Assembly (NCBI GenBank): GCA_965202985.1
Contig: CBDBCF010000001.1
Span: 1,376,001 to 1,440,000, forward strand
Direction of reading: 5' to 3'
From: Longimicrobiales bacterium
GTDB taxonomy: Bacteria > Gemmatimonadota > Gemmatimonadetes > Longimicrobiales > Gaopeijiaceae
Length of the DNA: 64,000 nt
Both the position numbers and the translations under genes were made by a program. Below the pieces are notes generated by a model that did not search any database, was not told the origin of the DNA, and saw only the letters and a list, made by a program, of their open reading frames with translations. Below, in pieces: positions 2,307 to 32,611 of this stretch; the first letter of the stretch is position 1, and every line of letters starts with the position of its first letter.

Positions 2307-2387
2307 GGGCGTCCTTGGGGTTGACGGGCGTTTGTCGGCGAGTCGCATCGTAGAACTGATTGGTTACGAGCTGAGATGGGAAAAGTC

Positions 2388-2451
2388 AAGCCGGGGCGGC
2401 GGGAATCGTGCAGGCGTGGAAGCCGGGGCGGCGGGAATCGTGCAGGCGTGG
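2388..2451. repeat. Perfect 32-bp tandem duplication AAGCCGGGGCGGCGGGAATCGTGCAGGCGTGG x2
   Basis: Copies at 2388-2419 and 2420-2451, read directly. Confidence 0.95.
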
Positions 2452-2553
2452 AACCCGCACCGGCGGGAAGAGGAAGATCTCAGCTCAGACGGGATACCGG
2501 GCCACGCCAGACAGATAAGCTCGCCCTCGCCCGAGGTTGTTCCACACCTTGGC

Positions 2554-2582
2554 TTGACCGCCCCCAAAACTACGGTTACCTT
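2554..2582 (+). promoter_or_regulatory. Putative sigma70 promoter for the ParB-nuclease-SNF2 operon
   Basis: TTGACC (2554-2559), 17-bp spacer, TACCTT (2577-2582), about 70 bp upstream of the ATG at 2652. Confidence 0.5.
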
Positions 2583-2651
2583 GCGGGGACCAAGGCGTTC
2601 CCGCTACATTCACCAAGTCTCTGTTCCTCCAACTTTCCGCGAGGCTGCCCA

Positions 2652-3680
2652 ATGTCAGAGAGTTACACGATGCTGGACGTCAACGAGATCGAATTCGACA
2701 CCGACAATCCGAGGATCAAGAAGGCGCTCGAGAAATACGGCGATCGCTTGACCGCCGAGAGGATCCACTTCGCCCTAACCACAGCGGGTACTGCCGCGAC
2801 CGGGGCTTCGTCGTACGCAAGTCTGCGTGATTCCATCCGAGCCGCACGTGGAATCACGATTCCCATTACGGTCGTCACTCGAAACGGCGGCTACACATGC
2901 ATTGACGGTAACACAAGACTCGCCGTCTACAAGGACTTCGTGAGCAAGGGCGAGGAAGGCGACTGGACCACCATCAAGACGATCGTCAGAAGCAACGCAA
3001 AACCCGAGGACATCGAGCGTATTCGAGTATCTGCCCACTTGGTGGGGGCTCGGGAGTGGCCAGCGTACGAGAAGGCGCGCTATTTGCACTACCTCCGCAA
3101 CCAGGAGTTTATGGATTACGGACAAATGATTCAGCTGTGCGGCGGCAACAAGACTGACATAGAACGTCAGATAGAGGCCTACCATGACATGAACCGATTC
3201 TATCGTGATATGGTAGATGACCAAGCATTCAAAATCGATAGATTCAGTGGCTTCGTGGAATTGCAGAAGCCCGGCGTTAAGGAGGCAATATGGACGGCGG
3301 ATTTCGACCTACAGGATTTCGGCAAATGGATCCGGGACGGCAAGATACTTCGGCTACGCGACGTTCGCTGGCTTCCCAAGGTTCTTGACGACCCAGATGC
3401 TAAACAGATATTTCTCGAAGGCGGCCCTAGATCCATAGAGGAAGCAATAAATCTCCTGCGACAGCGCGCAAGGACCACTGCCGCCGAAGCAGGTACCACA
3501 CTGACATCAGCGTCACTATTCCAGTTGGCCGAGGCGCTAGCTCGCAAGGTTGATGAAATGCCCTACTCCGAGGTTCGTGCACTCAAGACGCGGGAGCGAT
3601 CGGAGTTCGACGAAGGCATCGCGACATTGGAACACTTGTCCGCACGTCTCACCGAGCTTCTAGACGATGTCGGAGAGTGA
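2652..3680 (+). CDS. ParB/Srx-fold N-terminal domain protein (paralog 1)
   Basis: MSESYTMLDVNEIEFDTDNPRI...GITIPITV...CIDGNTRLA (ParB/Srx NPR and DGxxR motifs), followed by WPAYEKA. Start moved from 2376 to the ATG at 2652, where the lower-GC coding character begins. Confidence 0.8.
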   Translation: MSESYTMLDVNEIEFDTDNPRIKKALEKYGDRLTAERIHFALTTAGTAATGASSYASLRDSIRAARGITIPITVVTRNGGYTCIDGNTRLAVYKDFVSKGEEGDWTTIKTIVRSNAKPEDIERIRVSAHLVGAREWPAYEKARYLHYLRNQEFMDYGQMIQLCGGNKTDIERQIEAYHDMNRFYRDMVDDQAFKIDRFSGFVELQKPGVKEAIWTADFDLQDFGKWIRDGKILRLRDVRWLPKVLDDPDAKQIFLEGGPRSIEEAINLLRQRARTTAAEAGTTLTSASLFQLAEALARKVDEMPYSEVRALKTRERSEFDEGIATLEHLSARLTELLDDVGE

Positions 3681-4110
3681 CGTACACCGGTCGCTGGTGC
3701 TCCGAACGGCCAACGCCGTTAGGCAGAAATGCACGCAGTTAGCCACACTCATCACGGACGTACTGGCCAAACCTGGGGATCCTGTTCCGCCACTGGTGGA
3801 GGGATATCGGCCAGACTTATATGGTACTGGCCGTGACAATAGGCTGGTAGTACTTGGTGAGATCGAAACGCTGGCAAGTATGCGATCTCGTCACACCGTT
3901 AGGCAGATTGGAACATTTCTGTGCTATCTCGAGAAACTTTCACTGCATGGATGCCTTGTCTTGGCGGCCGAGGGAAACGGAGCCGATCGTGCTAAGGCGC
4001 TGCTAGGCTTTCTCGTTGCAGAACACTCTATTGAAGTCACTAGTATACTGGTGTACGATGGCTTGGACTTCTGGCACCTTGGCGGTACGGCTCGATGGCG
4101 TTTGCTCTAA
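3667..4110 (+). CDS. Small hypothetical protein, possible PD-(D/E)xK restriction-endonuclease fold
   Basis: 147 aa; MSESDVH...GYRPDLYG...LVVLGEIET resembles a PD...ExK motif with K changed to E; overlaps both neighbours. Confidence 0.55.
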   Translation: MSESDVHRSLVLRTANAVRQKCTQLATLITDVLAKPGDPVPPLVEGYRPDLYGTGRDNRLVVLGEIETLASMRSRHTVRQIGTFLCYLEKLSLHGCLVLAAEGNGADRAKALLGFLVAEHSIEVTSILVYDGLDFWHLGGTARWRLL

Positions 4111-5585
4111 GGAGACCTCCCCGCCTTGTTGGCAAGCACGATCCCTATCCGTATCAACTTGATGCTGTGCGGGCAATCAGAGGGTTGGAGTACGCAGCCA
4201 TCTTCCATGAACAGGGACTCGGGAAGACGAAGATCGCCATTGATTTGATCCACTCCTGGCTGGAGCAAGATGTGGTTGACACCGTATTCGTAATCACTAA
4301 GAAGTCGTTAGTGAGAAATTGGATGGAAGAAATACGAGCGCATTCGTACTTGACCCCTAGAGTACTATCGACAGATCGGCACCATAACAGCATCGCACTG
4401 AATTCACCAGTGCTCGTCTATGTTCTGAACTACGAAGTGGTTATGGGTAATGCGGAGCTACTTCGGTCCTTCTTGGCAACATGTCGCGTGGCTGCAATCC
4501 TGGACGAGAGCCAGAAGATCAAGAACCCCGAGTCCAGGTTGGCAATATGCTTTCATGACCTTGCAGACTGCTTCGATCGTCGCATAATCATGACAGGAAC
4601 GCCAGTTGCCAATCGCCCATTTGATATTTGGTCCCAAATTAGGTTCTTGGATGGCGGAACGGCACTCGGTAGATCGTTTGCGGCCTTCAGGGCAAGCCAT
4701 GATCTACCGAACAGCGATATTGCAGGTGGCGAATATGGATCTCAGCTGGCGAGGATTATGAATAGAATTCGACAGTTTTCGGTACGGGACACCAAGAGAT
4801 CAGCGGGCATAGAACTTCCAGACAAGACGATCCTCAGTCATCGGGTCGCTTTGGCACCAAGACAGAGAGAGGTGTACGGTGCATATCGAGACCGGCTACG
4901 GCACGACGTATTGGTAGAAGACGGTGAAATGAGGATCGACAGTGCCGAAGAGCTTCTCAAATTGTTGTTGCGGCTCGTTCAATGTGCATCCAATCCGGTC
5001 TTGGTCGACCCGACTTATGATGAGAAGCCGGGCAAGTACAGTAAGCTGAAGGAGATTGTTGGCAGTAGCGATGAAGATGGCAAGGTAATAGTTTGGAGTA
5101 ATTTTGTGGATAATGTAGAATGGTTGGCGAAAGCATTTCAGGACTATCGGCCAACGATTGTTCATGGGCGAATGGCTCTTAGGGACAGAGATCGAGCAGT
5201 AGCGACGTTCAAACATAACGATCGCTGTCGGCTACTTGTTGCCACTCCCGGTGCCGCCAAGGAGGGACTGACACTTACAGTAGCCAATCAAGCGGTGTTT
5301 TATGACCGGAGCTTTAGTCTGGATGACTACATTCAGGCTCAGGACAGGATACATCGCATATCTCAGGTGCGGACCTGCTTTGTTCATAATATGATAGCAG
5401 ACGGTACCATCGACGAGTGGGTTGACCTCTTGCTGAACGCGAAACACCAAGCGGCCCAACTGGCGCAAGGGGACATTGATGAGGCGGAGTTTGGAGCCGC
5501 TTTTGCGTACAACCTACACGAGGCATTGCGGGACATCTTGGCTCCGTCAGAGGGATTAGACGGAACGAAGGACGTCTTTGGGTGA
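4095..5585 (+). CDS. Stand-alone SNF2-family (SF2) helicase/translocase
   Basis: Walker A HEQGLGKT, Walker B ILDESQ, motif III TGTP, AAKEGLTLTVAN, motif VI QAQDRIHRISQ. Confidence 0.92.
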   Translation: MAFALRRPPRLVGKHDPYPYQLDAVRAIRGLEYAAIFHEQGLGKTKIAIDLIHSWLEQDVVDTVFVITKKSLVRNWMEEIRAHSYLTPRVLSTDRHHNSIALNSPVLVYVLNYEVVMGNAELLRSFLATCRVAAILDESQKIKNPESRLAICFHDLADCFDRRIIMTGTPVANRPFDIWSQIRFLDGGTALGRSFAAFRASHDLPNSDIAGGEYGSQLARIMNRIRQFSVRDTKRSAGIELPDKTILSHRVALAPRQREVYGAYRDRLRHDVLVEDGEMRIDSAEELLKLLLRLVQCASNPVLVDPTYDEKPGKYSKLKEIVGSSDEDGKVIVWSNFVDNVEWLAKAFQDYRPTIVHGRMALRDRDRAVATFKHNDRCRLLVATPGAAKEGLTLTVANQAVFYDRSFSLDDYIQAQDRIHRISQVRTCFVHNMIADGTIDEWVDLLLNAKHQAAQLAQGDIDEAEFGAAFAYNLHEALRDILAPSEGLDGTKDVFG

Positions 5586-5904
5586 CCTGCTCCGCCACAT
5601 CTCATCCTTGAATCCTCGGCCCCCAGCGGCAACCGCGCGGGGCCAGGAGCCCGTGGAACATTAGCCCGTCCTTTGTTGTTTGGAGGTTGAGGGGGGCGGG
5701 TAGATTGGGATGGGGATACCGCCGTCGATGCCGGGGGGGCAGAGGGGTCAAGCGACAACATAGATGAAGCTGTCGGAGGCGTCCGTGGTTAATGTCGAGG
5801 GGGTTCGGGCGCGAGGCTTGTCCTGTGGTTTGGAGTCGGGCCGTCGGTGATCGTGGAGCGGGGTCCAGCTAGTTCAGTGCCTTCCCGAACGAGGAAAAGC
5901 ACTG

Positions 5905-7100
<1,196 letters not shown>

Positions 7101-7107
7101 ACGCCCG

Positions 7108-7883
7108 ATGAGCCCCGAGCAGCCCTTCGTCGGGGAACGGCGCCGAGGTCGACTGCATGCTCAAGGAACTGCACATGCCCACCATGAAGGACCTGTGGCG
7201 GCCGTTCGCCGACCGGGCCGAGCGCGAACGCTGGTCGCTCGACAACTTCGACTTCGGCCGCCTGCCGGACTGTCCGAACGCTTGGTCCGCGGCCTCGCCA
7301 ACGGAGGCGACTGGATCGACGACGGCCACAACGTCGTCGTCCTCGGCCCGCCCGGCACCGGCAAGAGCCATCTCGCCGCCGGCATCGGCCTCGCCCTCGT
7401 CGAGCGCGGCTACCGCGTCCTCTACGCCCGAGCCACCGACCTCGTGCGGAAGCTCCAAGCCGCACGCCGCGACCTCGCCCTCGAGGCCGGGATCCGACGA
7501 CTCCACAAGTTCCACCTCGTTGTCCTCGACGACATCGCATACGTCGACAACGGACCGCGACGAGACCAGCGCGCTCTTTCGAACTCGTCGGCACGCGCTA
7601 CGAGTACCGCTCGCTCTTGGTCACCACCAACCAGCCGTTCAGCGCATGGGAGCGCATCTTCGCCGACAAGGCCATGACGGTCGCCGCCGTCGACCACCTC
7701 GTCCACCACGCCCACGTCCTCACGCTCGAAGGCGAGAGCTGCCGCCGACAAGAAAAAAGCCGCACGGCTACCCCCGCACAGCACGCCGGCACCACCGACG
7801 ACGACGCGGGCCGTCCCCGAACGCGCCTTCACAGCCCGCCTGGTGACGCTGCCCCCCGCCGCGACAGGGCGGAAGTCCGTTGA
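7108..7883 (+). pseudogene. istB: IS21 helper AAA+ ATPase remnant
   Basis: AAGGAG RBS and ATG at 7108; fragments LKELHMPTM...LDNFDF, NVVVLGPPGTGKSHLA (Walker A), LVVLDDIAY (Walker B), TTNQPFSAWERIF...AAVDHLVHH spread over several frames. Confidence 0.9.
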
Positions 7884-8511: not shown

Positions 8512-9519
8512 ATGACCCAACCAGAAATTACGATCCACAGCACAAGGATACCCTGCACGGACGACAAATGGCGAACTGACCGGCTGGTCTTCCTGAGCGA
8601 AAACCCGCGCGTCTATTCCTCCATTGCTGACATTCCTGACTTCGACGACCTGCATGATGACCAGAAGCAACAGGTGATCTATCGTCAGCTGCTCAAAGAA
8701 CGGAGCGTCAGGACGCTGATTCCAGACATTCGTGATAACGGCGGCTTGATCGAACCAATTCTCGTGCGTGCCGACACACGAGAAGTTGTCGAGGGTAATT
8801 CCCGTCTCGCTGCCTACAGGCACCTGTATAGCGAATCCAAAGACGAAAAATGGAATACTATTCCCTGCCGACTCGTATCAAGCCTCACCGATGACCAGCT
8901 AGCAGCGCTGCTTCACTCTATACATGTCAAAGGCAAGACGTCCTGGACAACGTATGAGAAGGCCCACTTTACCTATCTCCAACACAAGAAGGGCAAGAGA
9001 ATCGAAGATATCGCAAAGCTGTTTTCGATATCAACATCGAAGGCCTATCAGGATGTCCGGATTATAAAAGCGATGAAAGAGAACAGTGACTCCGATCGTG
9101 CGCACTTCAGCTACTACAGCGTACTCAAGACAAGCTTGAGGAAGGAACTCCGGGACAACACCCAGCTGGAGTCTGCACTCTTGTCGATGATTCGGCGTCC
9201 TGACGACGGTGGCGATCACCATCCGCCATTTACAGCCCAGAACCTACGCGACCAACTGCCAGTGGTACTTCGGAAGCCCAAGATTCTACGCAAGTTCGTG
9301 AAAGGGGAGATCACCCTTGACACCGCTCATGACAGAGCCAAAATCAGCGATACTCAGTCTAAAATGAAGCGAGTTCGTGGACTTCTTAATGACGTGACGC
9401 ACGAGGAGCTACGAGAACTTGGTCAACCAGCCAAGAAAGCCGTTGACTACGAGTGCCGCAAGGTACAGAAGGAGCTCTCCCGCATCCAGAAAATGCTCGC
9501 CAAGATGATGTCCTCATGA
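8512..9519 (+). CDS. ParB/Srx-fold N-terminal domain protein (paralog 2) with HTH-like region
   Basis: ENPRVYS...GGLIEPILV...VVEGNSRLAA, WTTYEKA, then IEDIAKLFSISTSKA (HTH-like). Confidence 0.82.
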   Translation: MTQPEITIHSTRIPCTDDKWRTDRLVFLSENPRVYSSIADIPDFDDLHDDQKQQVIYRQLLKERSVRTLIPDIRDNGGLIEPILVRADTREVVEGNSRLAAYRHLYSESKDEKWNTIPCRLVSSLTDDQLAALLHSIHVKGKTSWTTYEKAHFTYLQHKKGKRIEDIAKLFSISTSKAYQDVRIIKAMKENSDSDRAHFSYYSVLKTSLRKELRDNTQLESALLSMIRRPDDGGDHHPPFTAQNLRDQLPVVLRKPKILRKFVKGEITLDTAHDRAKISDTQSKMKRVRGLLNDVTHEELRELGQPAKKAVDYECRKVQKELSRIQKMLAKMMSS

Positions 9520-11141
9520 GTGGTCATCGCATCCTGCTTGTAGAACCCGGATACAGAAACAAGTACCCACCGCTTGGCCTGATGAAGATAGCCGCGTATC
9601 ACGGACTCGAAGGCCGTGGGGATACGGTTAGATTTGTAAAAGGCGAGAACTCAGAAGTACTTGCTGAGGTCTGGGATCGAGTATACGTTACAACGTTGTT
9701 TAGTTTTGAATGGACCCGGACAGCACGAGCGATCGATTTTGCAATCCGAGCCGCTGGTGGCCAAAACGAACGGGTATTTGTGGGCGGTATTGCGGCATCT
9801 TTGATGCATGACGATTATGTGTCAGAACCTCGATGGTCGGGCGTTAGATTTGTTAAAGGATTGCTAGACGGTCCTCCCGCGACCGCCTTAATGTTGTCGG
9901 AAGACAACTGTGATTTTGGCGCGGACGACGTATCGAGTCTGCCAATAGAAAGAAACGTGCCAGATTACGGAATACTAGACCACATCGAATACAAGTACCC
10001 CGTACACGATGCCTACTTTGGTTACGCTTCGCGCGGATGCGTCCGAAAATGCTCCTTTTGCGGCGTTCCGGCGTTGGAAGGTGGACTTCGAGAGATGCCG
10101 CCGCTTTCGAACCTAGTGCACGGAATCGCGCAGGTACATGGACCCAAGAAGGATCTGATATTGATGGACAATAATGTCACAGCATCTTCCCGATACAAAG
10201 AGATTATCGCTGAAATCAGGGACCTGGGCTTTGTCCGTGGTGCCCGGGTAGAGGCTAACGGCACGAAGCCAGCCGTCAAGCGGCGGGTGGACTTTAATCA
10301 GGGCGTAGATGCCCGTATTCTGGCGAAATCTCCGATGTACCTTCGAGAAATGGCTACGATATGCATTGATCCGCTGAGGATCGCCTTTGATCATCTAGGC
10401 GTTCGGAGAGTCTATGAGACGGCAATAAACATGGCGGCAGATAACGGTATTACGTCTCTGTCCAACTATATGCTCTACAATTTTATGGATACACCAATTG
10501 ACTTGTACACACGAATGGCTTTGAACATTCAACTTAATGAGAGTCTTGGAATTCGCATCTGGTCGTTTCCGATGCGATATCAGCCGGTTACGCTTCGGGA
10601 TCGTTCTCACGTCGGCAAGAACTGGAATTGGTATTACCTCCGTTCATTTCAGATTATGCTACAAGCTACTCACGGAGTTGTGAGTGGCAACCCAGCATTC
10701 TTTCGCCGAGCTTTCGGGGAAGACCAAGATCGCTTTCTCGAACTTCTTGGAATGCCGCACGCGTTTATTTTCTTCCGAGAATACTACGAGGCTGGCGGCG
10801 GCACGGCGGTGCGAGAAGAATATGAGGCATTGCGTAAACGGCTGACGTCTAGTCAGCGGAAGGAATTGCTTGGCATGGTGCTTGGCCAACATGTGCATCG
10901 AGGCCGTGACGAGTTTCTCAGAAGAACGAAGGATCGACAAATTGACCGTCAAGTGAGAAAGATCTTACGTTTTTATGCGCTGGACACCAAAGAACGATCC
11001 AAGCTCGAGGGTCAGAAAATTTTGGCAGACACTGAAGACCTAGCGCCCGGCATGCCGGATGCAGAACGCAGGGTCGAGGACGCAGGGTTGTACGACGACG
11101 GACCGGCAACCGGTGGTCGCCTAGTTGCGTTAGCGACATGA
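9516..11141 (+). CDS. Radical SAM enzyme with N-terminal cobalamin-binding-like domain
   Basis: ATGA overlap with the upstream stop; ILLVEPGYRNKYPPLGLMKIAAYH...VFVGGIAASL N-terminal domain; RGCVRKCSFC (CxxxCxxC, 10038-10061); LMDNN; VDFNQGVDAR. Confidence 0.9.
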   Translation: MSGHRILLVEPGYRNKYPPLGLMKIAAYHGLEGRGDTVRFVKGENSEVLAEVWDRVYVTTLFSFEWTRTARAIDFAIRAAGGQNERVFVGGIAASLMHDDYVSEPRWSGVRFVKGLLDGPPATALMLSEDNCDFGADDVSSLPIERNVPDYGILDHIEYKYPVHDAYFGYASRGCVRKCSFCGVPALEGGLREMPPLSNLVHGIAQVHGPKKDLILMDNNVTASSRYKEIIAEIRDLGFVRGARVEANGTKPAVKRRVDFNQGVDARILAKSPMYLREMATICIDPLRIAFDHLGVRRVYETAINMAADNGITSLSNYMLYNFMDTPIDLYTRMALNIQLNESLGIRIWSFPMRYQPVTLRDRSHVGKNWNWYYLRSFQIMLQATHGVVSGNPAFFRRAFGEDQDRFLELLGMPHAFIFFREYYEAGGGTAVREEYEALRKRLTSSQRKELLGMVLGQHVHRGRDEFLRRTKDRQIDRQVRKILRFYALDTKERSKLEGQKILADTEDLAPGMPDAERRVEDAGLYDDGPATGGRLVALAT

Positions 11142-11142
11142 G

Positions 11143-12675
11143 GTGCAAGCGTTGGCACGGCTAGAGATCGAACGATACGTCGGCTCCTCGGAGCCGGTTT
11201 TGGGTGATCAGGTCCTTGGGATCATTACTTCTGCAATGTACGACAGTCCCTTGGCGGTGTATCGGGAGTATATTCAGAATTCCGCTGACGCATTGGCTAG
11301 TTTGGATTTGCGTAGCCGGGGAGCGGTAGACGTGTCAGTCGACCCGCGTCGACAGCGCATTGAGATTCGTGATAACGGCCCCGGACTGTCCGAAGAAATG
11401 GCCGTTCGTACTTTAGTGCCGATTGCGACTAGCCGAAAGCGGCAAGAAGGCGGCCGGGGGTTTCGGGGCATAGGTAGGTTGTGTGGCTTAGCGTTCGCGG
11501 AGTCGGTTACGTTCCGTACGCGGGCAGACGGTGCCCAGGACGTAACGCAGATCAAGTGGAGCGGACCGGAACTCCGGGCTCATATAGGACGAACTGGGCA
11601 TACGGCGCATTCGGTGCGAGAGTGCGTAGAAGTAACGACAGAGGCCGGGGATGGGTTTCCCGAGCATTTTTTTTCGGCGACCGTGGAGGGGGTGCATCGG
11701 CATGCAGCTGGAGCTCTGCTGAATCGCGAAACGGTTCGGGCATACATAGGCGAGGTATGCCCAGTGCCAATCGCCGAGTCATTTCCTTTTGTGGCGGATG
11801 TCAGGAGATTGTTTGCTGATGGTGAGACGCCCCTAGCGCTGACAGTATCGTTGACCAAAGATGCGAGACCGATTTGTCGACCGCTAGGGAAAGAGCTGCG
11901 TCTCTCAATGCATCGTGTTGATCGCTTTAGAGATTTTGAGGAGATTCGGATATCGTCGCTCGATAAGGCTACGATTGCGGCAGTCGGATGGATTGCTCAT
12001 TCGTCATATATGGGTGCGTTGCCGAAGAGGTTGGGCATTAGGGGCATGCGAGTCCGTGCCGGGAACATTCAGATCGGTGGTGAGGACGTATTTGACCATC
12101 TTTTTGATCAGGAACGCTTTAATCGGTGGTGTGTAGGTGAGATTCATGTTACGGATAGTCGAATTGTACCAAATGGTCGCCGGGATTATTTTGAAGCAAG
12201 TCCACATCTGAGGAATCTAGAGAATCACCTGTCGGTCTTATTCCGAAACATTACGGCACGGTGCCGCCTAGCATCCAAGAAACGTAATCGTATGCGGAGA
12301 TTTGAGGCAGACGTGGACAACATCGAAAATTGGTATCGTCTTGTGGCATCGGGGTGGCTTGCTCAGAATGAAGCATTAAAGTTAGCTATCAAGGTTCGAG
12401 AACAAGCGAGTCGGCTAGCGGAGAAGATTGAGGCATTAGACCGAGGGGCCGGGAACGTAGCAACCAGACTTCGAGCAGTCACAGATGATCTACGGGATTT
12501 CAACGGACCCAGTCAACGGCCGTTAGTGCCCATGACGAAAGCGGAACAACGAGCGTACCAACGCGCATTTCTTGCGATCATTGAGGCGACGAACTCGCCG
12601 CGGACGGCACTGAGGGCAATTGAAGCTGTGGTTGATAGAATGGGATCGGAGGAGAGGCGGAGGAGAAAGGTGTAG
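11143..12675 (+). CDS. GHKL (Hsp90/MutL/MORC-like) ATPase
   Basis: Bergerat motifs YREYIQNSADA (ExxxNxxD), IRDNGPGL (DxGxG), GFRGIGRLCG; then an S5-like segment GMRVRAGNIQIG...VGEIHV...PNGRRDYFE and a helical C-terminus. Confidence 0.88.
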   Translation: MQALARLEIERYVGSSEPVLGDQVLGIITSAMYDSPLAVYREYIQNSADALASLDLRSRGAVDVSVDPRRQRIEIRDNGPGLSEEMAVRTLVPIATSRKRQEGGRGFRGIGRLCGLAFAESVTFRTRADGAQDVTQIKWSGPELRAHIGRTGHTAHSVRECVEVTTEAGDGFPEHFFSATVEGVHRHAAGALLNRETVRAYIGEVCPVPIAESFPFVADVRRLFADGETPLALTVSLTKDARPICRPLGKELRLSMHRVDRFRDFEEIRISSLDKATIAAVGWIAHSSYMGALPKRLGIRGMRVRAGNIQIGGEDVFDHLFDQERFNRWCVGEIHVTDSRIVPNGRRDYFEASPHLRNLENHLSVLFRNITARCRLASKKRNRMRRFEADVDNIENWYRLVASGWLAQNEALKLAIKVREQASRLAEKIEALDRGAGNVATRLRAVTDDLRDFNGPSQRPLVPMTKAEQRAYQRAFLAIIEATNSPRTALRAIEAVVDRMGSEERRRRKV

Positions 12676-22326: not shown

Positions 22327-23697
22327 GTGAACGCGATTCGGCTCAAGAACTTCCGCTGCTTCGGGGACGAGCAGGAGGTTCCGCTCGCGCCGTTGACGTT
22401 GCTCGTCGGTGAGAACAGCACCGGCAAGACGTCGTTCATGGCAGCGATTCGGGCGTTGTGGGACATATTCTACCGCGAGCGCGTCCCCGACTTCAAGGAA
22501 CAGCCGCACGACCTGGGCAGCTTCGGGGACATTGTCCATTCGCCCACAAAGGATGCTGCTTCGCATCGTCCTCACTTCGAGTTTGGCTTGGCGTATTCGG
22601 CCGAAGGCGATTCGCCGAGCGCTCCTTACCAAGGTCGGTTTGACGTCTCGTTCGGCAAGAACGGCGCCGCACCGACACCGGTGCGAATGACGCTTTCCGA
22701 TGCCGAGCGGAAGGTTTGGGTCGAGTACAGCCAAGATGATGATTCGTGGCGGGTCTCCGTCGGCACGCCTCAGGGAATTTGGCGTCCAAGTCCAGAGGGC
22801 AAGCCACCGGTGATTCATGCAGATCGGATATGGCCGTTCTTCGTAGTCATGGACATCTACAGGAGAGGCAACACAGTGAACGCCCGGATCGAAGATGAAG
22901 AACCGTTACTTCGCGACTTACAAGGTCGATCCACCGCAATCGAGTCAGATACCTGGGAAATGATCGAACAACTTTGCAGATCACAGTATAGCCAAGATTT
23001 TTTTGACAAGACGCGCTATGCAAGCGCACCCGTGAGGTCTAAGCCTCGACGGACGTATGATCCTTCGCGTGTTATCCACGACCCGGAAGGAGGCGATACA
23101 CCGACGTACTTGGGCAATTTGGCGCTCCAGCGCAAGAGCAAGTGGACATCACTAAGCAGGGCACTCGCCCGATTTGGTGTCGATTCTGGTCTTTTCGAAG
23201 AACTTACGGTACGTTCCTTTGGCGATACCGCGAGTGATCCTTTTCAGCTTCAAATCAAAGAAACCAATTCTGGAACTGGTAGCCCACTGCGCAATCTTGC
23301 AGACGTTGGCTACGGCGTTAGTCAAGTGTTGCCCGTGGTGACCGAACTCCTGCGTCCCGAAGCCCCACCTGCGTTCTTGTTGCAGCAACCCGAAGTTCAT
23401 CTGCATCCGAGTGCACAGGCCGCCCTGGGCAGCTTGTTCTGTCAAGCCGCACGACCGGGCAAGTTGCTCATTGTCGAAACCCACAGCGACTATCTCTTGG
23501 ATCGCATACGGATGGATCTTCGAGATGACAAGACAGACTTGCGACCTCAAGACGTGGCAATATTGTTTTTTGAGCGAATAGACAGAGCTGTGCGTATTCA
23601 TCGATTAACGTTCGATAAAGAGGGTAACATCTTAAATGCGCCGAGTAGCTATCGTGCTTTCGTCATGCAAGAAATGCAAAGATCGCTGGGACTGTGA
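22327..23697 (+). CDS. ABC-type/AAA ATPase (AAA_15/AAA_21, DUF3696-like C-terminus)
   Basis: IRLKNFRCF, Walker A GENSTGKT, LADVGYGVSQVLP, LLQQPEVHLHP, IVETHSDYLL; lower GC. Confidence 0.88.
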   Translation: MNAIRLKNFRCFGDEQEVPLAPLTLLVGENSTGKTSFMAAIRALWDIFYRERVPDFKEQPHDLGSFGDIVHSPTKDAASHRPHFEFGLAYSAEGDSPSAPYQGRFDVSFGKNGAAPTPVRMTLSDAERKVWVEYSQDDDSWRVSVGTPQGIWRPSPEGKPPVIHADRIWPFFVVMDIYRRGNTVNARIEDEEPLLRDLQGRSTAIESDTWEMIEQLCRSQYSQDFFDKTRYASAPVRSKPRRTYDPSRVIHDPEGGDTPTYLGNLALQRKSKWTSLSRALARFGVDSGLFEELTVRSFGDTASDPFQLQIKETNSGTGSPLRNLADVGYGVSQVLPVVTELLRPEAPPAFLLQQPEVHLHPSAQAALGSLFCQAARPGKLLIVETHSDYLLDRIRMDLRDDKTDLRPQDVAILFFERIDRAVRIHRLTFDKEGNILNAPSSYRAFVMQEMQRSLGL

Positions 23698-23703
23698 AGA
23701 GTC

Positions 23704-24165
23704 GTGTGCGCTATTGTTGACGCCAATGTCGCGTCGGCGATGTTTCGACCAGATCGCTCGAATGCCGCGTCGGCCTTCTTCGAGTGGATCAATGCCGGGT
23801 CCGGTCGATTGATTGGCGGAGGCAAACTGCGTACGGAACTTGGTTTATTGGATTCGTTCAGGGAGTGGCAACGAGAAGCGATTCTTGCGGGACGTATTCG
23901 CAACTACAGCGACGATGAAATCGAAATACAAACGGGTATCGTCAAGAACACAGGATTGTGTCGGTCGGACGACGAACACATCATTGCATTGGCTCAGGTC
24001 AGTGGTGCTCGCTTGTTGTATTCGCATGACAAGCGGTTGCATGAGGATTTTAGAAACCCGGAATTGGTCAAGAAACCGCGTGGAAAAATCTACTCAACCC
24101 TAACTGGCACAAAGCTTCGAGACAGCCACAAGCAACTTCTTCGCCAGAGTTCGTGCAGGAAGTAG
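23704..24165 (+). CDS. PIN-domain-like protein
   Basis: AIVDANV at the N-terminus; SDDEHIIALA...LLYSHDKRL acidic PIN pattern. Confidence 0.7.
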   Translation: MCAIVDANVASAMFRPDRSNAASAFFEWINAGSGRLIGGGKLRTELGLLDSFREWQREAILAGRIRNYSDDEIEIQTGIVKNTGLCRSDDEHIIALAQVSGARLLYSHDKRLHEDFRNPELVKKPRGKIYSTLTGTKLRDSHKQLLRQSSCRK

Positions 24166-24194
24166 ATGTCGACGACGCAAGAGCAGGGGCCATC

Positions 24195-24527
24195 ATGAGC
24201 GGGCAGGACCGTGTGCCCGACGTTCCCGCCGACGCGATGCGCGCGATGATTCGGGTGTTCTCGTCGTATCCCGACTTGGAGAAGGTGACGTTGTTCGGGT
24301 CTCGCGCCATGGGCACGGCCAAACGCTGGTCCGACATCGACTTGGCCACGCATGGCATCGTGGGCGATCGTCACCGCCTGGGCCGACTCGCTCTCGACCT
24401 TGAAGACACCGACATTCCGCAGACCTGCGACGTCATGGCGTACGAGGCGATCTCCCATGTGCTCCTGAAGCGCCACGTGGACAACATGGGCATCGTCATT
24501 TACAGGCGAGACGCCGGGACAAGCTGA
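24195..24527 (+). CDS. Minimal nucleotidyltransferase (MNT/Pol-beta) protein
   Basis: LFGSRAMG...SDIDLA (GSx10DxD) and a third acid in TCDV. ATG at 24195 chosen over 24153. Confidence 0.85.
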   Translation: MSGQDRVPDVPADAMRAMIRVFSSYPDLEKVTLFGSRAMGTAKRWSDIDLATHGIVGDRHRLGRLALDLEDTDIPQTCDVMAYEAISHVLLKRHVDNMGIVIYRRDAGTS

Positions 24528-27680: not shown

Positions 27681-29234
27681 ATGATGCGCCGTATTGGGAG
27701 CTGGCTGAAGGCGTTTGGGCGCTGGATTCTAGCCGCGTTTTCCCGTATCTTTGGCGCCGCCGCCGGCTTGCTCGGCACCTCCTCCAAGTCTTCTCGCCGA
27801 CAGGAAACGATGAACCCCCAACTGGACACGATGCCCCTTGCAGAACGGTTTCGCTTGGTGGAGCGAGGCCGTGCGCGGGGCAAGAACAACGCGCCCGCCC
27901 CGAATCAGCCGGGGTTGGATCTGGTCGAAACTGAAGTGGTCGAGCATTGCAACCGGTTGATGAGCCAGAAGAAGGACGCGTACCGTAGAACAGCTCGCCT
28001 GACCGAGCAACGATCTGTCCCCGCGGCGGGTACAGCCACGAGTGCGGACGCGGCGGTTGAAGAGGCGTGCGGCCGCATGAGGGCAAGAGTGGAAGAGGAG
28101 CGCCCCGCGTTGAAAAGCCTTCACAGGTCTGCGCAGAAGGCTGTCGACGACATGCGGGACTTCAAGAACGTGCACCGCCTGACTCGGGACGCCCACGTGC
28201 CTCAAAACCTTACTTCCTCGTGGATGCTACTTGCGGTGTTGCTTGTGGTCGAGACGCTGATAAACGGGCTGTTCTTCGGCGCGAACTTGGCAACAGGGCT
28301 GTTCGGCGGCGTCACTTACGCCGCACTGATCAGCGCCATCAACGTAGTCGTGTTCGGCTTGCTCGCCGCGACCGCCATTCGGCAGCTCTATCATCGCGAC
28401 CAGTCCCGAAATATGGTAGGATACTTGCTCCTGTTGCTCGTGGGCACAGGAGCCATTGGATGGAACCTTGCCGTGGCACACTACCGGGAGGCACTACCGC
28501 CCGACTATCCGCCCGCGATGGAAGCGATAGAGGACACAACCGATGTCGAAGTCGGAATCGCCGAGTGCCGACGGGGGCCCACCGAAGCCGACGCCGACGG
28601 AGAAGCAGTTTGTCTGTTGGTGAACCAATGGTTCTCGCTCGACGGCTTTCAATCCTATATGCTCATGTTAATCGGTCTCGTGATGTTTGGTGTTGCGACG
28701 TGGAAGTGGTTGCGCATGAGCGATCTGTATCCTGGCTTCGGTCAACTGGAAAGGCGGCGACAGGAGACGGAAAAGAACCTTCTCGACGAGCGACAGGAAC
28801 TAATGGAGCGGTTGGCGGACGACGTAGAGGACGCAGTGAAGCAGCAACATGCCATCTTTGTTGATCCGGTAGGTAGTTGGAAAAGGGCCATGAAGGCCCA
28901 TGAGGACCTGAAGCAGGCCCACGAGGACCTTCGCGACTTCGCAAGAGAACTAGAAGAAGAATGCCGTAGCGCCATCGAAACATATCGGTCCGCCAATCGA
29001 GAGGCTCCCCGCGGAGATCCAGAGCCCGCTCACTGGTCGAAGCCATGGAAGGCGAGCTGGGAGTTGCCGGAAAGGCCTGCCCCGGATCGGGGCGACATCG
29101 GCGACCGTCGTCAAGCAGAGGCCGAGAGCCGGGCAGCGCAGGAACAACGAGACGAGCGTTTGGCCACCCTGAGGTCGTGCGCTGACGAATGCAAGGCCCA
29201 AATGGAACAGATCACCAGGATCAGCGATGAGTAG
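27681..29234 (+). CDS. Hypothetical multi-pass membrane protein with N- and C-terminal helical/coiled-coil regions
   Basis: About four hydrophobic helices (WMLLAVLLVVETLING..., VTYAALISAINVVVFGLL, YLLLLLVGTGAIGWNLAV, YMLMLIGLVMFGVATW), DLYPGFG motif, charged heptad-rich C-terminus. Alternative start 27810. Confidence 0.75.
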   Translation: MMRRIGSWLKAFGRWILAAFSRIFGAAAGLLGTSSKSSRRQETMNPQLDTMPLAERFRLVERGRARGKNNAPAPNQPGLDLVETEVVEHCNRLMSQKKDAYRRTARLTEQRSVPAAGTATSADAAVEEACGRMRARVEEERPALKSLHRSAQKAVDDMRDFKNVHRLTRDAHVPQNLTSSWMLLAVLLVVETLINGLFFGANLATGLFGGVTYAALISAINVVVFGLLAATAIRQLYHRDQSRNMVGYLLLLLVGTGAIGWNLAVAHYREALPPDYPPAMEAIEDTTDVEVGIAECRRGPTEADADGEAVCLLVNQWFSLDGFQSYMLMLIGLVMFGVATWKWLRMSDLYPGFGQLERRRQETEKNLLDERQELMERLADDVEDAVKQQHAIFVDPVGSWKRAMKAHEDLKQAHEDLRDFARELEEECRSAIETYRSANREAPRGDPEPAHWSKPWKASWELPERPAPDRGDIGDRRQAEAESRAAQEQRDERLATLRSCADECKAQMEQITRISDE

Positions 29235-30048
29235 GAAGTCCAGGAGGGAAGCCGAGAAGAAGAAGACGCGGCGAGCTTGGGGGGTGATTGTACCCTGCGT
29301 CCTGCTACTATTTGGCTTCATCGTCTTTGGCCAGCTGAACCAGCCCCAAACCGGTGCTGATCATTGTCCCTTGGACGGCCAGTTCCCCTTCCAAGTGGCG
29401 GTGCTCGTGGACCCGTCGGATGCACTCACCGCAGTTCAGCAGCGATCGGCTCTCCCTCGGCTTATCGAAGCCCTGGATCAAGTGTCCGAACGAGCCGAGA
29501 TTCGCGTCTATTCGGTTGCGCGGATCGGACGAGGTGGCAATGCGGGGGCTGACCTGCGACTGTGCGTGCCACGCCACCCCGAGAGTATTGGCTGGCTCGA
29601 AGGCCTGTGGAAAAACCGCCGGATCGCCGCAAGGAACTACGACCAGGACTTTATCGAGCCGCTGCGTTCGCGGTTGGGTGAACTTCTTGCTGCACCGAGC
29701 GACTCCGTGTCGCCGATCCTGGAAGCCATACAGGCCGCTTCCGTCGACGCCTTTCCACCAGGAAGCCCAGCGGTTCCGCGAGAGCTGATCGTCGTGTCCG
29801 ATATGGCTCAGCACTCCAGGGACCTGTCGTTCTTCCGGGAGGCTCCAGATTTTGGCGCATTCGGTGGCAGCGCTATCTACAGGACGCTCCGTGTCGATCT
29901 CATCGGCGTCAAGCCGACGGTTCTTCTGCTTGCTCGCCGTGGAACGTCAGGACATCTGCAAGCTGGACGTCTGCAGCGGTTTTGGGACGACTACTTCATC
30001 GATTCGGGTACCGATGGCCCGCCCCGTTGGGTCCCCGTCGAGGGATGA
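29227..30048 (+). CDS. Membrane-anchored vWA-like domain protein
   Basis: N-terminal basic stretch plus TM; VAVLVDPSD (MIDAS-like), SPILEAI, LIVVSDMAQHS; overlaps the upstream gene. Confidence 0.6.
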   Translation: MSRKSRREAEKKKTRRAWGVIVPCVLLLFGFIVFGQLNQPQTGADHCPLDGQFPFQVAVLVDPSDALTAVQQRSALPRLIEALDQVSERAEIRVYSVARIGRGGNAGADLRLCVPRHPESIGWLEGLWKNRRIAARNYDQDFIEPLRSRLGELLAAPSDSVSPILEAIQAASVDAFPPGSPAVPRELIVVSDMAQHSRDLSFFREAPDFGAFGGSAIYRTLRVDLIGVKPTVLLLARRGTSGHLQAGRLQRFWDDYFIDSGTDGPPRWVPVEG

Positions 30049-30070
30049 CCCGGCTTCCTGGCGAGACGAC

Positions 30071-31522
30071 ATGACATTGTTCCATAGCCAACCTACGCCA
30101 AGCCGCCGACAGGCTCTCCAAGTCGAGCGCCAGCGGAAAGATCATCAAAGGACCTGGATATTCACATTGGGCGTCGGTCTTCTGCTCGTCTTCGCCGGCA
30201 GTTGGCTCGGATTCGATCGATGGTTGGGAGGATGGTTCCTCGCGCTTATCCTGTCCTTGCTCATGGCGATGTACTTCATCACGGCGAGCACCACGGAGTA
30301 CGTCTCGGCAGACACACGGGGCGACGCGTTCTATTATCTGGGCCTGCTCTTCACTTTCGGGTCTCTTGTATCTGCTCTGTACGGTTTTTCTAGGTCCGAC
30401 GTTGGCGACATGAGAGAGATGATTGCTCCTTTTGGCATCGCGTTGCTCACCACGATTGTGGGCCTCTTTGGGCGAGTCTGGTTCTCTGTGTGGCAGGAAG
30501 CTCCTGGTGATGCCGTTGCCGACGCCACTCGGGCACTGGACGAAGAGATCAGAGACATGAAGGAGATCGTCAGGCTGGGCAGTGTCGGCATGGCAGACCT
30601 CGTAGACAAGGTTGGCGAGTCCGCCCAGGCAATCGAAGCAACCGCGGGGCGCATTGCATCCGCTGCGAAAAGGGCTGTCAGCACGGCCAGCGATCTCGAC
30701 GAATACTCTGGCCACGTGGCTAAGCTTGCCCAGTCCTTCACGCACGGGGCGACCAAATTTGAGTGTGCGGTCGCCGGGGTCTCCGACGTCGTCTCAGCTC
30801 TAAAGAAGCCTCTGGAAGAGACGAAGGGACGCCTGGACGCCCTGTGTGCCGATTTTGCTGTGCTCGGCAAAGCCGTCAAGCAGGCGCAAGGGTCGGTGCT
30901 GCAGTTGGATCGTGCAGGTCGCGACAGCGAACAGGAAATCGCGGGCATTGCGTCGCGTGCCGAAGGCGTAAAGAGCGAGATGGAGAAGATGCAGGTGCAA
31001 CTTGCCAAGACAGCGGAGTTTGTCGTTGGTGCCCAACGCGCCGCTTCGACGATCGACGAACACACCGCCAGGATAACCCGTTCCGTTGGCGACTTGGCGG
31101 GAGAAGTCGGTAGGTTGCAAGAGGCTGCTGTCGTGGCCGCAGATGCCATGTCGGGAGTGGGAAGCGCAGCGTCGGAATTTGGAATGGCGAAGTCTCAGGC
31201 AGCCTCTTTGGGCGAAAGCCTGTCGGGGTTGTCGAACGCAGCGGTCCAAGGACGAGAAGTTGTAGCAGGGCACGTTGAGGGCCTGAGAGAAAATTTGGAC
31301 GCCGTGGGTGCCGAAGCTGCGGCGACGCTTGGCCACGCAAGCGGTCGTGCGGATTCCGTGACCAAGGACCTCGATAGTCTGCGGGATCAGCTGACGGAGA
31401 CCCAGAAGCAGCTATCGCAGATCACTCGCGACAGTGTCGTGGTCGCCAAAGAACTGCGCCGACGCACCCAAGGTTGGAAATGGCGGCGCTTCTTGTTCTG
31501 GCGACGCGATTCGACACGCTAG
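30071..31522 (+). CDS. MotA/ExbB/TolQ/ZorA-like proton-channel subunit with a long cytoplasmic helical tail
   Basis: TM motifs YYLGLLFTFGSLV (cf. LGLLGT) and FGIALLTTIVGL (cf. GIxxALxTTxxGL), followed by a long Ala/Ser/Glu-rich heptad tail. Start ATG 30071. Confidence 0.65.
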   Translation: MTLFHSQPTPSRRQALQVERQRKDHQRTWIFTLGVGLLLVFAGSWLGFDRWLGGWFLALILSLLMAMYFITASTTEYVSADTRGDAFYYLGLLFTFGSLVSALYGFSRSDVGDMREMIAPFGIALLTTIVGLFGRVWFSVWQEAPGDAVADATRALDEEIRDMKEIVRLGSVGMADLVDKVGESAQAIEATAGRIASAAKRAVSTASDLDEYSGHVAKLAQSFTHGATKFECAVAGVSDVVSALKKPLEETKGRLDALCADFAVLGKAVKQAQGSVLQLDRAGRDSEQEIAGIASRAEGVKSEMEKMQVQLAKTAEFVVGAQRAASTIDEHTARITRSVGDLAGEVGRLQEAAVVAADAMSGVGSAASEFGMAKSQAASLGESLSGLSNAAVQGREVVAGHVEGLRENLDAVGAEAAATLGHASGRADSVTKDLDSLRDQLTETQKQLSQITRDSVVVAKELRRRTQGWKWRRFLFWRRDSTR

Positions 31523-31543
31523 CGTAGACCGAGGTCGGTAGCA

Positions 31544-32611
31544 ATGTTGCCCGCCGAGAAGACGCACTACCGCAAAGGCCTGACGCTCGGGCTGACGCTG
31601 GCGGAGACGTTTAGCGTGGTGGTCTTTGTCCTGCTCTTAGCGTTTGCACTGGTGCTGCGCACCGAGAACGACTCTCGCGTTGAGGCTGAAGAGCAACTTG
31701 GCGAGGCCGAGACGCAGTTGGCGCGCCGCAACCAGATGCTGAACCCCGGCGACACATTGGGTGGCAGTTGGTACCGTTACGCCCAACAGTTGAATGACTC
31801 GCTGGAGGACACACGAGACCGCGCGGGGGTGGCGGAGGCCGAGCTTGCCCAGGCACGTTCCCTGCTGGAAGCGAGGTTGGGACAGCAAGAAGTCGACTCG
31901 CTTCTGGAGCGGTCCAGGGAGCTGGAGACCGCTCGCGATTCCGTGGAGCGGGTCAAGAATTTGTTGGAAACTCTGGAAACCGAACGGGACTCGCTGATCA
32001 ACACTGCGACCGAAGCGCAGAGGCTCCGGGAGATCGTGGCCGAAGCAGTTGCCGAGGAACACGACTCCCTCACGTCCACACAAGTGGATTCGATAATCGC
32101 GCAAGCGGCTCGCGCCGGCTCGCTGGCCCAGGAACTGAGGGAAGCCCACGAGGCCATCCGCTACCAAGCCGCACAGCTTCGCTCCAGGGACAGACTTCTG
32201 GCTGGCGGTTCGGTGGACTCCTTAGCTCGGGAGAATGATCGGTGGCGGTCCCGCTCGGACTCGTTGGAGCGCGAGCTTCGAGGCCACGGTCCACCTTCGT
32301 GCTGGCTCGACGCCCGTGGCGACCCCGAGCATGTCTTTCGCGTTGAGCTAACCGACGGTGGTATGAGGCTTTATGCTACCATCCCCGAGCACCGATCAAC
32401 GGAAGACGAGGTAGAATTCGTCCGGCAAATCGAAGAAGGACGCGAGTACGTACCCGAGGACTTCATTCGACTCACCAGCCCGTTCCTCAGGGCCGGACTC
32501 CGGGACGAGTGCAAGTTCTGGGTTCGGATCGAACGCCGAACGGAGAACGCGGCCATCTTCGAGGAACGTATACGAGAAGTTCGCAATCCCTTCTTTCCCG
32601 TACTTCGTTAG
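31544..32611 (+). CDS. MotB/ExbD/ZorB-like single-TM protein with coiled coil and an unrecognised C-terminal domain
   Basis: Short N-terminus, TM GLTLAETFSVVVFVLLLAF with an intramembrane Glu, long coiled coil, C-terminal domain with PPSCW...ECKFWV; no OmpA-like motif seen. Confidence 0.55.
   Translation: MLPAEKTHYRKGLTLGLTLAETFSVVVFVLLLAFALVLRTENDSRVEAEEQLGEAETQLARRNQMLNPGDTLGGSWYRYAQQLNDSLEDTRDRAGVAEAELAQARSLLEARLGQQEVDSLLERSRELETARDSVERVKNLLETLETERDSLINTATEAQRLREIVAEAVAEEHDSLTSTQVDSIIAQAARAGSLAQELREAHEAIRYQAAQLRSRDRLLAGGSVDSLARENDRWRSRSDSLERELRGHGPPSCWLDARGDPEHVFRVELTDGGMRLYATIPEHRSTEDEVEFVRQIEEGREYVPEDFIRLTSPFLRAGLRDECKFWVRIERRTENAAIFEERIREVRNPFFPVLR

Follow-up and report, generated by a model that had tools for sequence, protein, structure and literature searches.

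The closest described relatives of the system reported here are the 5:2 ion motors TolQR, ExbBD and MotAB/PomAB, and the ZorA5B2 unit of Zorya. In ZorA5B2, the A subunit is of the MotA type and carries a Thr/Ser ring as well as a long helical tail, and its gene lies next to that of a single-helix B subunit in a mobile cassette. We analyzed a four-gene cassette that appears to share these features. It lies in a stretch of 64,000 nucleotides (the window) of the genome of a Longimicrobiales bacterium (Gemmatimonadota; assembly GCA_965202985.1, contig CBDBCF010000001.1, positions 1,376,001 to 1,440,000). Its genes, named G1 to G4, are listed here with their positions in the window:

27681-29234, + strand: G1, open reading frame (ORF) of 517 aa, four-helix membrane protein
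29227-30048, + strand: G2, ORF of 273 aa overlapping G1 by 8 nt, probable vWA-like protein
30071-31522, + strand: G3, ORF of 483 aa from its ATG after a 22-nt gap, predicted MotA/TolQ/ExbB-type subunit
31544-32611, + strand: G4, ORF of 355 aa after a 21-nt gap, likely B subunit

For G3, the ORF finder also gives a longer frame that starts with TTG at 29852. The GC content of the cassette is 0.59-0.61 (genome, 0.69) and its GC content at third codon positions (GC3) is 0.66-0.71, compared with 0.85-0.93 in three adjacent genes. An earlier reading of this DNA, hereafter the original prediction, had described a low-GC, co-oriented and tightly spaced four-gene operon, which the ORF calls, GC and GC3 bear out. 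The cassette is single-copy in the source genome, and its genes are under purifying selection (ratio of non-synonymous to synonymous rates 0.15-0.33 against two relatives).

Judged from profile comparisons, the cassette is not a member of Zorya types I-III, although a ZorB-like OmpA domain does occur in some of its relatives. According to the accessible text of PMC11946911, E. coli ZorA has three membrane helices and a calcium-binding domain, ZorB carries Asp26 and ZorB has no linker, whereas G3 has four predicted N-terminal helices and G4 has a glutamate and a long stalk before its end domain. That end domain is of the OmpA-type, peptidoglycan-binding kind in ZorB and a cysteine domain in most G4 copies. 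The membrane partners G1 and G2 are encoded rather than ZorC/D/E/F/G (types as given in the accessible part of PMC8565338), and the nuclease associated with some cassettes looks exported, whereas that of Zorya is cytosolic. In our profile scan G4 had no ZorB match, while true ZorA2 and ZorB2 proteins scored 4e-157 and 2e-88, and no ZorC/D/E/F/G-type gene is conserved beside the cassette. The original prediction, which took the locus for a Zorya-like module outside the described subtypes, had seen no Zor helicase or nuclease, flagellar gene or TonB gene alongside. Our comparison agrees, with weak profile matches, no zorC/D/E/F/G gene, and an MlrC-like peptidase and a desaturase as the flanks. 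ZorD was considered as a partner and rejected, as the nearest SNF2 helicase is 22 kb away in a separate island.

The membrane helices of G3 align with those of ExbB/TolQ, with weak structure matches to the 5:2 motors, but the cassette differs from TolQR, ExbBD and MotAB/PomAB in its long A-subunit tail, its glutamate and its accessory distribution. Across the loci no conserved TonB/TolA-type partner, SHLS helix, TonB receptor or flagellar gene lies beside it. Two described arrangements combine such motors with vWA proteins. In the accessible part of PMC12204202, vWA proteins are proposed as force transducers for TolQR-like motors, and the likeness is that a membrane-tethered vWA protein is encoded with a TolQ-like gene. 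The families set out there have either the SHLS motif, a TPR gene and two tolR genes, or an Asp helix of their own without tolR, whereas the cassette has a separate B subunit, neither His nor Asp is conserved in the G2 helix, and G1 does not appear in that part of the paper. The Agl-Glt machinery of Myxococcus also has a TolQR-type motor that works with a vWA protein, CglB, and with coiled-coil scaffolds. It comprises at least 17 proteins across both membranes with CglB on the surface, according to the accessible part of PMC11761067, whereas the cassette consists of four genes for predicted inner-membrane proteins. Our literature searches found no published description of the cassette; subscription papers were mostly outside their coverage, and supplements of defense screens may list it.

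Conservation and distribution of the cassette

A scan of GTDB genomes returned 304 relatives of G3, and the locus counts rest on the best 80 of these 304. Thirty-two of the 80 loci are from Gemmatimonadota, two are from Rhodothermales, and the 46 others (the distant loci) include alpha-, beta- and gammaproteobacteria, Acidobacteriota, Nitrospirota and Bdellovibrionota. All four genes occur in the same order in 75 of the 80 loci. Of the remaining five, three run off the end of their contig, one consists of G3-G4 alone and one is missing G4. Whether the four genes travel together had been named as a check on the original prediction, and they do so in these 75 loci. No general fifth gene was found across the 80 loci. 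In one locus (L038:7878-11395), G3-G4 without G1-G2 are followed by a MORN-repeat protein.

The cassette is mobile accessory cargo with a patchy distribution. G4 is present in 13 of 201 genomes of the source family. A search with G2 matched 24 plasmid records, 11 of them conjugative, and all four genes were found in each of the four plasmid loci inspected. Rhizobial plasmids are among the carriers; plasmid pRL11 of Rhizobium johnstonii 3841 has an intact cassette and a nuclease gene (RL_RS31080-RL_RS31100), to which the old pRL110 tags in the accessible part of PMC11406972 could not be mapped. The full set also occurs on one IMG/VR contig, while phage records gave no match and no RNA holder came up, and it is found in oligotrophs such as Pelagibacter. 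In a FastTree phylogeny built from 81 G2 rows, after removal of 17 near-duplicate loci and 12 Tad rows, the copies from Gemmatimonadota and Rhodothermota share one starred branch, surrounded mainly by copies from proteobacteria.

The motor-like subunits G3 and G4

By its sequence, G3 is a MotA/TolQ/ExbB-type subunit with a predicted threonine ring on the pore-lining helices. Four N-terminal helices are followed by a predicted helical tail of ~340 aa (about residues 141-483), which is all helix in the model, with the helical part running from about residue 145 to 476, and is probably cytoplasmic. The tail has a median length of 330 aa (range 74-460, 79 rows). The conserved core reads GDxxYYLGFLFTL...NFGIALxTTIVG; LGLLFT starts at 30338 and FGIALLTTIVGL occupies 30431-30466, exactly where the original prediction had placed them. 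The key residues of G3 and the corresponding features of G4 are:

30353..30355, + strand: G3 Thr95, which pairs with the GT threonine in the ExbB/TolQ alignment
30452..30454, + strand: G3 Thr128, which pairs with the second ring threonine in the ExbB/TolQ alignment
31604..31606, + strand: G4 Glu21, where MotB/ZorB have the aspartate
32276..32611, + strand: G4 C-terminal domain, with conserved C253 and C323

Alignment of the G3 profile to ExbB/TolQ had a probability of 78% (E 1.8e-5) and put both threonines in register; the reversed control gave 0.4%. In 126 rows gathered without a sequence pattern, T95 is invariant (126/126) and T128 is conserved in at least 90%. Because the GTDB loci were collected with a pattern that includes T95, only the T128 count is independent there (81 of 81 rows). 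Foldseek searches with the G3 model recurrently returned TolQ, ExbB, PomA, MotA and type II ZorA, all at E >0.2, and a wider fold search was taken up by BAR-like matches to the tail. Against Pfam, NCBIfam and PADLOC, the four proteins gave coiled-coil noise and nothing over cut-off, and sequence and profile searches of the PDB gave nothing specific. A complex prediction with four G3 heads and two G4 helices, which is not the 5:2 ratio, scored 0.17 (mark, 0.32) and speaks neither for nor against the assembly. The alignment, the Foldseek rows and the model together bear out the MotA-family assignment and the helical tail of more than 300 aa that had been read from the letters. Three ordinary ExbB/TolQ genes are found elsewhere in the source genome.

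G4 is likely the partner B subunit of G3. Its single hydrophobic helix (19-37) contains the motif GLT[LM]AE and is followed by a coiled stalk of ~200 aa and then by a C-terminal domain. Glu21 is present in 78 of 80 rows (the other two are gaps) and in all five plasmid and viral copies. A MotB mutant with Glu for Asp keeps weak function. The aspartate at this position of B subunits is called universally conserved in the accessible text of PMC11946911. The end domain of G4 is modular and swappable. The two-cysteine form, in which C253 and C323 likely make a disulfide, is found in 73 of 79 loci, including the source copy. In some relatives, which retain the Glu helix, an OmpA domain replaces it: Pfam OmpA matched three of the seven G4 candidates scanned, one of them over the cut-off, and G4 is annotated as OmpA in all four plasmid copies inspected. 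The Glu-type helix, together with ZorB2-like and OmpA ends in relatives, ties G4 to the MotB/ZorB class. The single-helix, MotB-like protein of the original prediction therefore stands as to its helix, but the residue is Glu, not Asp, and the OmpA domain is absent here.

One relative (L067:9409-10494) is a chimeric B subunit, with a Glu-type helix and a ZorB2-like OmpA domain that matches the ZorB2 profile at 5e-37. A likeness of the G4 end domain to ExbD/TolR, guessed by eye, gained no support (hhalign 0.2%, a weak test against just four ExbD sequences).

G1 and G2 as a separable module

G1 has N- and C-terminal coiled coils around four inner-membrane helices, three seen by hydropathy and the fourth (323-346) in the model (mean predicted local distance difference test, pLDDT, 90.8). 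The multi-transmembrane coiled-coil protein expected for the first gene is thus recovered. Conserved polar residues lie in or near the membrane helices (E191, N195, N221, N262, H267, R269, S325 and D348), the motifs DxYPG[YF]G and YRxxN recur, and Met44 is an alternative start. Profile scans found no known family for G1. Fold searches returned helical bundles of a generic kind (Z at best 10.4, over 110 residues), which does not in itself show a new fold, and an Atlas structure search gave only unnamed clusters above a TM-score of 0.5.

G2 has one N-terminal hydrophobic helix (17-35) and then a putative periplasmic vWA-like domain. Its metal site is altered: D62-x-S/T64-D65, S162 and D192 would correspond to the metal ion-dependent adhesion site (MIDAS, DxSxS...T...D), where the last serine of DxSxS is not conserved and D65 is. 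Conservation is high at these positions (D62 in 77 of 79 rows, S/T64 in 78, S162 and D192 in all 79), and C47 and C113 are also conserved. The vWA label is likely, by an indirect route. It is best supported by the distant Tad-type relative described below, which aligns with G2 at 97.7% and with true vWA domains at 80.9%. Pfam VWA_3 matched 2 of 60 G2 sequences, and an Atlas lead (0.84) pointed to a cluster that is 44% VWA_2; direct hhalign of G2 against vWA was negative (0.9%). The membrane-anchored vWA-like protein of the original prediction is therefore upheld for its single helix, and is likely for its vWA part by way of the Tad-type relative.

The G1-G2 pair is a separable module with a distant copy in Tad pilus operons. 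Strong G2 matches (E <1e-20) were obtained in 18 of the source family's 201 genomes, and seven loci in six genomes have G1-G2 without motor genes. In the five of these six genomes that were searched no match covers the G3 membrane domain, and the sixth has a full cassette elsewhere. We also fetched 22 of 25 weak G2 matches. A G1-like gene is directly upstream in 22 of these 22 loci, and Tad genes are in view in 10. These distant pairs align with those of the cassette over their full length and in the same order (95.6% over 404 columns for G1, and the value given above for G2; controls, at most 2.5%), and all 22 Tad-type G2 proteins have an intact DxSxS. In the Tad operons of related Gemmatimonadota, the pair comes without motor genes after tadA/B/C, DUF192 and often one further gene. 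In the G2 tree the Tad rows are on one side of a branch, five motor-less rows form a separate group and two fall within the motor copies. We claim no order of events because the tree has long branches and a midpoint root. The source genome has no Tad system.

Tad operons that contain the distant pair include L104:5472-13740, L154, L156, L159, L160, L162 and L163; the gene that often precedes the pair together with DUF192 is ~470 aa long and has no Pfam match. One motor-less pair (L099:6230-11665) is adjacent to and convergent with a complete Zorya II operon (ZorA2, ZorB2, ZorE2). Another locus (L103:6440-9794) has the order G1, G2, G1, with two G1 paralogues around one vWA-like gene and no motor. 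The glutamate in place of aspartate, the swappable G4 end domain and the independence of the G1-G2 module all go beyond the original prediction.

Insertion site and neighboring genes

The cassette lies between an M81/MlrC-like peptidase gene upstream and a fatty-acid desaturase gene downstream. Among 30 loci around the MlrC-like peptidase, six have an empty site (peptidase then desaturase, without the cassette) and five, including the source locus, have G1 directly after the peptidase; the other four of these five are genomes of two genera. On these two counts, the cassette is an accessory insertion without a mobility gene of its own. Scans for promoters, terminators and repeats were at chance level, and no terminal repeats were found. 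Synonymous distances to two relatives (L001 and L107) are 0.65-0.85 and 1.24-1.42 for the cassette and equal, at 0.42-0.53, for the flanks, a hint that alleles have been exchanged while the site stayed the same.

SNase-like genes that form one cluster occur in 14 loci, all of them among the 46 distant ones, and 13 were confirmed as Pfam SNase. With one genome that has two copies counted once, there are 45 distant genomes, of which 13 have a Pfam SNase in the flanks, whereas 0.16 would be expected because these genomes hold 59 SNases, assuming that they are evenly spread. In 11 of the 14 loci the gene is at most 500 bp away. The SNase N-termini, read by eye, look like signal peptides. The annotation of three of the four inspected plasmid loci includes a thermonuclease, and a divergent cassette copy in the source family also has an SNase. 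Single loci are flanked by other nucleases of secreted type (S1/P1, NS endonuclease, PLD and GmrSD_C-Excalibur). Further flanking genes include integrases, transposases, CRISPR genes, WYL, HNH and OLD-type ATPase genes, and also plain metabolic genes.

In two loci (L049 and L050) the cassette lies between cas6 and CRISPR type III-associated genes, and in two distant genomes (L044:10544-13125 and L054:11079-13708) a radical SAM gene pair follows it. Other low-GC genes occur in the window. A trio at 22327-24527, 3 kb upstream of the cassette, encodes an AAA ATPase (best PADLOC match NsnB, E 1.7e-43), a PIN-domain protein and a nucleotidyltransferase, and is possibly a small defense or toxin-antitoxin module. 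A low-GC island separate from the cassette (2376-5585 and 8512-12675) encodes an SNF2 helicase with weak ZorD/DpdE profile matches, a radical SAM enzyme and a GHKL ATPase. This island is broken by an IS21-type element near 5800-7800.

Discussion

G3 and G4 probably form an ion motor or channel. For the cassette as a whole, we put at about even the chance that a G3(5)G4(2) motor is coupled to G1-G2 and serves in envelope defense against incoming phage or plasmid DNA, a role that the patchy mobile distribution and the nuclease neighbors fit. We infer all functional steps, and the detailed version, in which G2 grips a target and G3 turns against G1, is unlikely. Five G3 subunits would surround two G4 helices, and Glu21 would carry protons past the Thr95/Thr128 ring. 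By way of the end domain, which is of the OmpA kind in some copies and of the cysteine kind in the source copy, the G4 stalk would contact the cell wall or a partner in the envelope and immobilize the motor. The metal-site domain of G2, presented by G1, would grip a target at the envelope, for instance a phage tail or a mating bridge. As G3 turns, its tail may work against the cytoplasmic coiled coils of G1, so that an entry channel is blocked or the polar helix bundle of G1 is opened. Where an exported nuclease is encoded, it would cut the stalled DNA outside the cytoplasm; the source copy must act without one. A bolder version of this idea is less probable: that a Glu-based 5:2 rotary motor captured a portable membrane and vWA adaptor otherwise used by Tad pili, and seizes phage tails or mating bridges to destroy or stall DNA outside the cytoplasm through an exported nuclease instead of cytosolic effectors.

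Several observations weigh against envelope defense by a rotary motor. The site is filled in four other genomes of two genera, which suggests long retention, and in the source genome the cassette is flanked by metabolic genes, with no integrase there. The nuclease enrichment assumes an even spread, and SNases may simply prefer mobile DNA; several SNase loci are kin and thus not fully independent, and the orientation and side of the gene vary. The source genome has no SNase beside or away from the cassette, and the SNase cluster occurs in 0 of 34 Gemmatimonadota/Rhodothermales loci. The Pfam scan covered 216 of the 455 flanking ORFs of the distant loci, without a control set. None of the profile matches to the four proteins clears a curated cut-off; the best ZorA match of G3 is weak (E 2.4e-5 over 65 residues), and 2 of 41 relatives match at E <1e-3. 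Glutamate in place of aspartate could signal a different mechanism. Distant relatives of G1-G2 are found in Tad operons, which favors a role of the module in adhesion or pili.

This last point leads to the alternative that we regard as a tentative but serious one, a surface-attachment or envelope force machine in which the motor pulls or presents the vWA protein for adhesion, as Agl-Glt drives CglB. It would account for the distant pairs being together in every locus fetched, with Tad genes in view in nearly half, and agrees with the TolQR-like force transduction by vWA proteins proposed in the accessible part of PMC12204202 and with retention at one site across genera. However, the tether of G2 is in the inner membrane, the loci share no outer-membrane, TPR or TonB-like partner, the source genome is without a Tad system, and the link to nucleases is left unexplained.

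It is rather improbable that the cassette serves nutrient or DNA scavenging, with an exported nuclease degrading extracellular DNA and the motor energizing capture or import of the products. The signal-peptide-like SNase N-termini (by eye), the other secreted-type nucleases at single loci and the presence of the cassette in oligotrophs such as Pelagibacter would suit this explanation. Yet the neighborhood has no conserved gene for a transporter, a porin or nucleotide catabolism, import of the Ton type needs no long cytoplasmic tail, and most copies have no nuclease beside them.

We give little credence to a gated ion channel, in which G2/G4 would sense damage to the envelope and a pore of G3/G4 or of G1 would open, so that the cell is depolarized in abortive infection or a stress response. 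The replacement of Asp by Glu, the conserved polar membrane residues of G1 and the lack of a conserved cytoplasmic effector gene are compatible with such a pore, but the two-threonine ring of rotary 5:2 motors is retained, and both the long tail and the forms anchored by OmpA point to mechanical coupling. Finally, a divergent member of a described Zorya type is highly unlikely and already largely refuted: the weak ZorA2 matches, the long tail and the one G4 with a ZorB2-like OmpA domain are set against the lack of any conserved ZorC/D/E/F/G-type gene, the Glu of G4 and the score of true ZorA2 in the same scan.

The cassette probably adds a cross-phylum branch without a name, missed by current PADLOC, Pfam and NCBIfam profiles, to the small set of 5:2 ion motors. 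Its natural change from Asp to Glu and its swappable anchor domain offer a direct test of what motor chemistry needs, and the copy in Rhizobium johnstonii 3841 lets such tests start in a laboratory strain. The G1-G2 pair looks like a reusable adaptor that motors and Tad pili have in common. If the defense role is true, the cassette would be a system that acts before DNA enters the cytoplasm.

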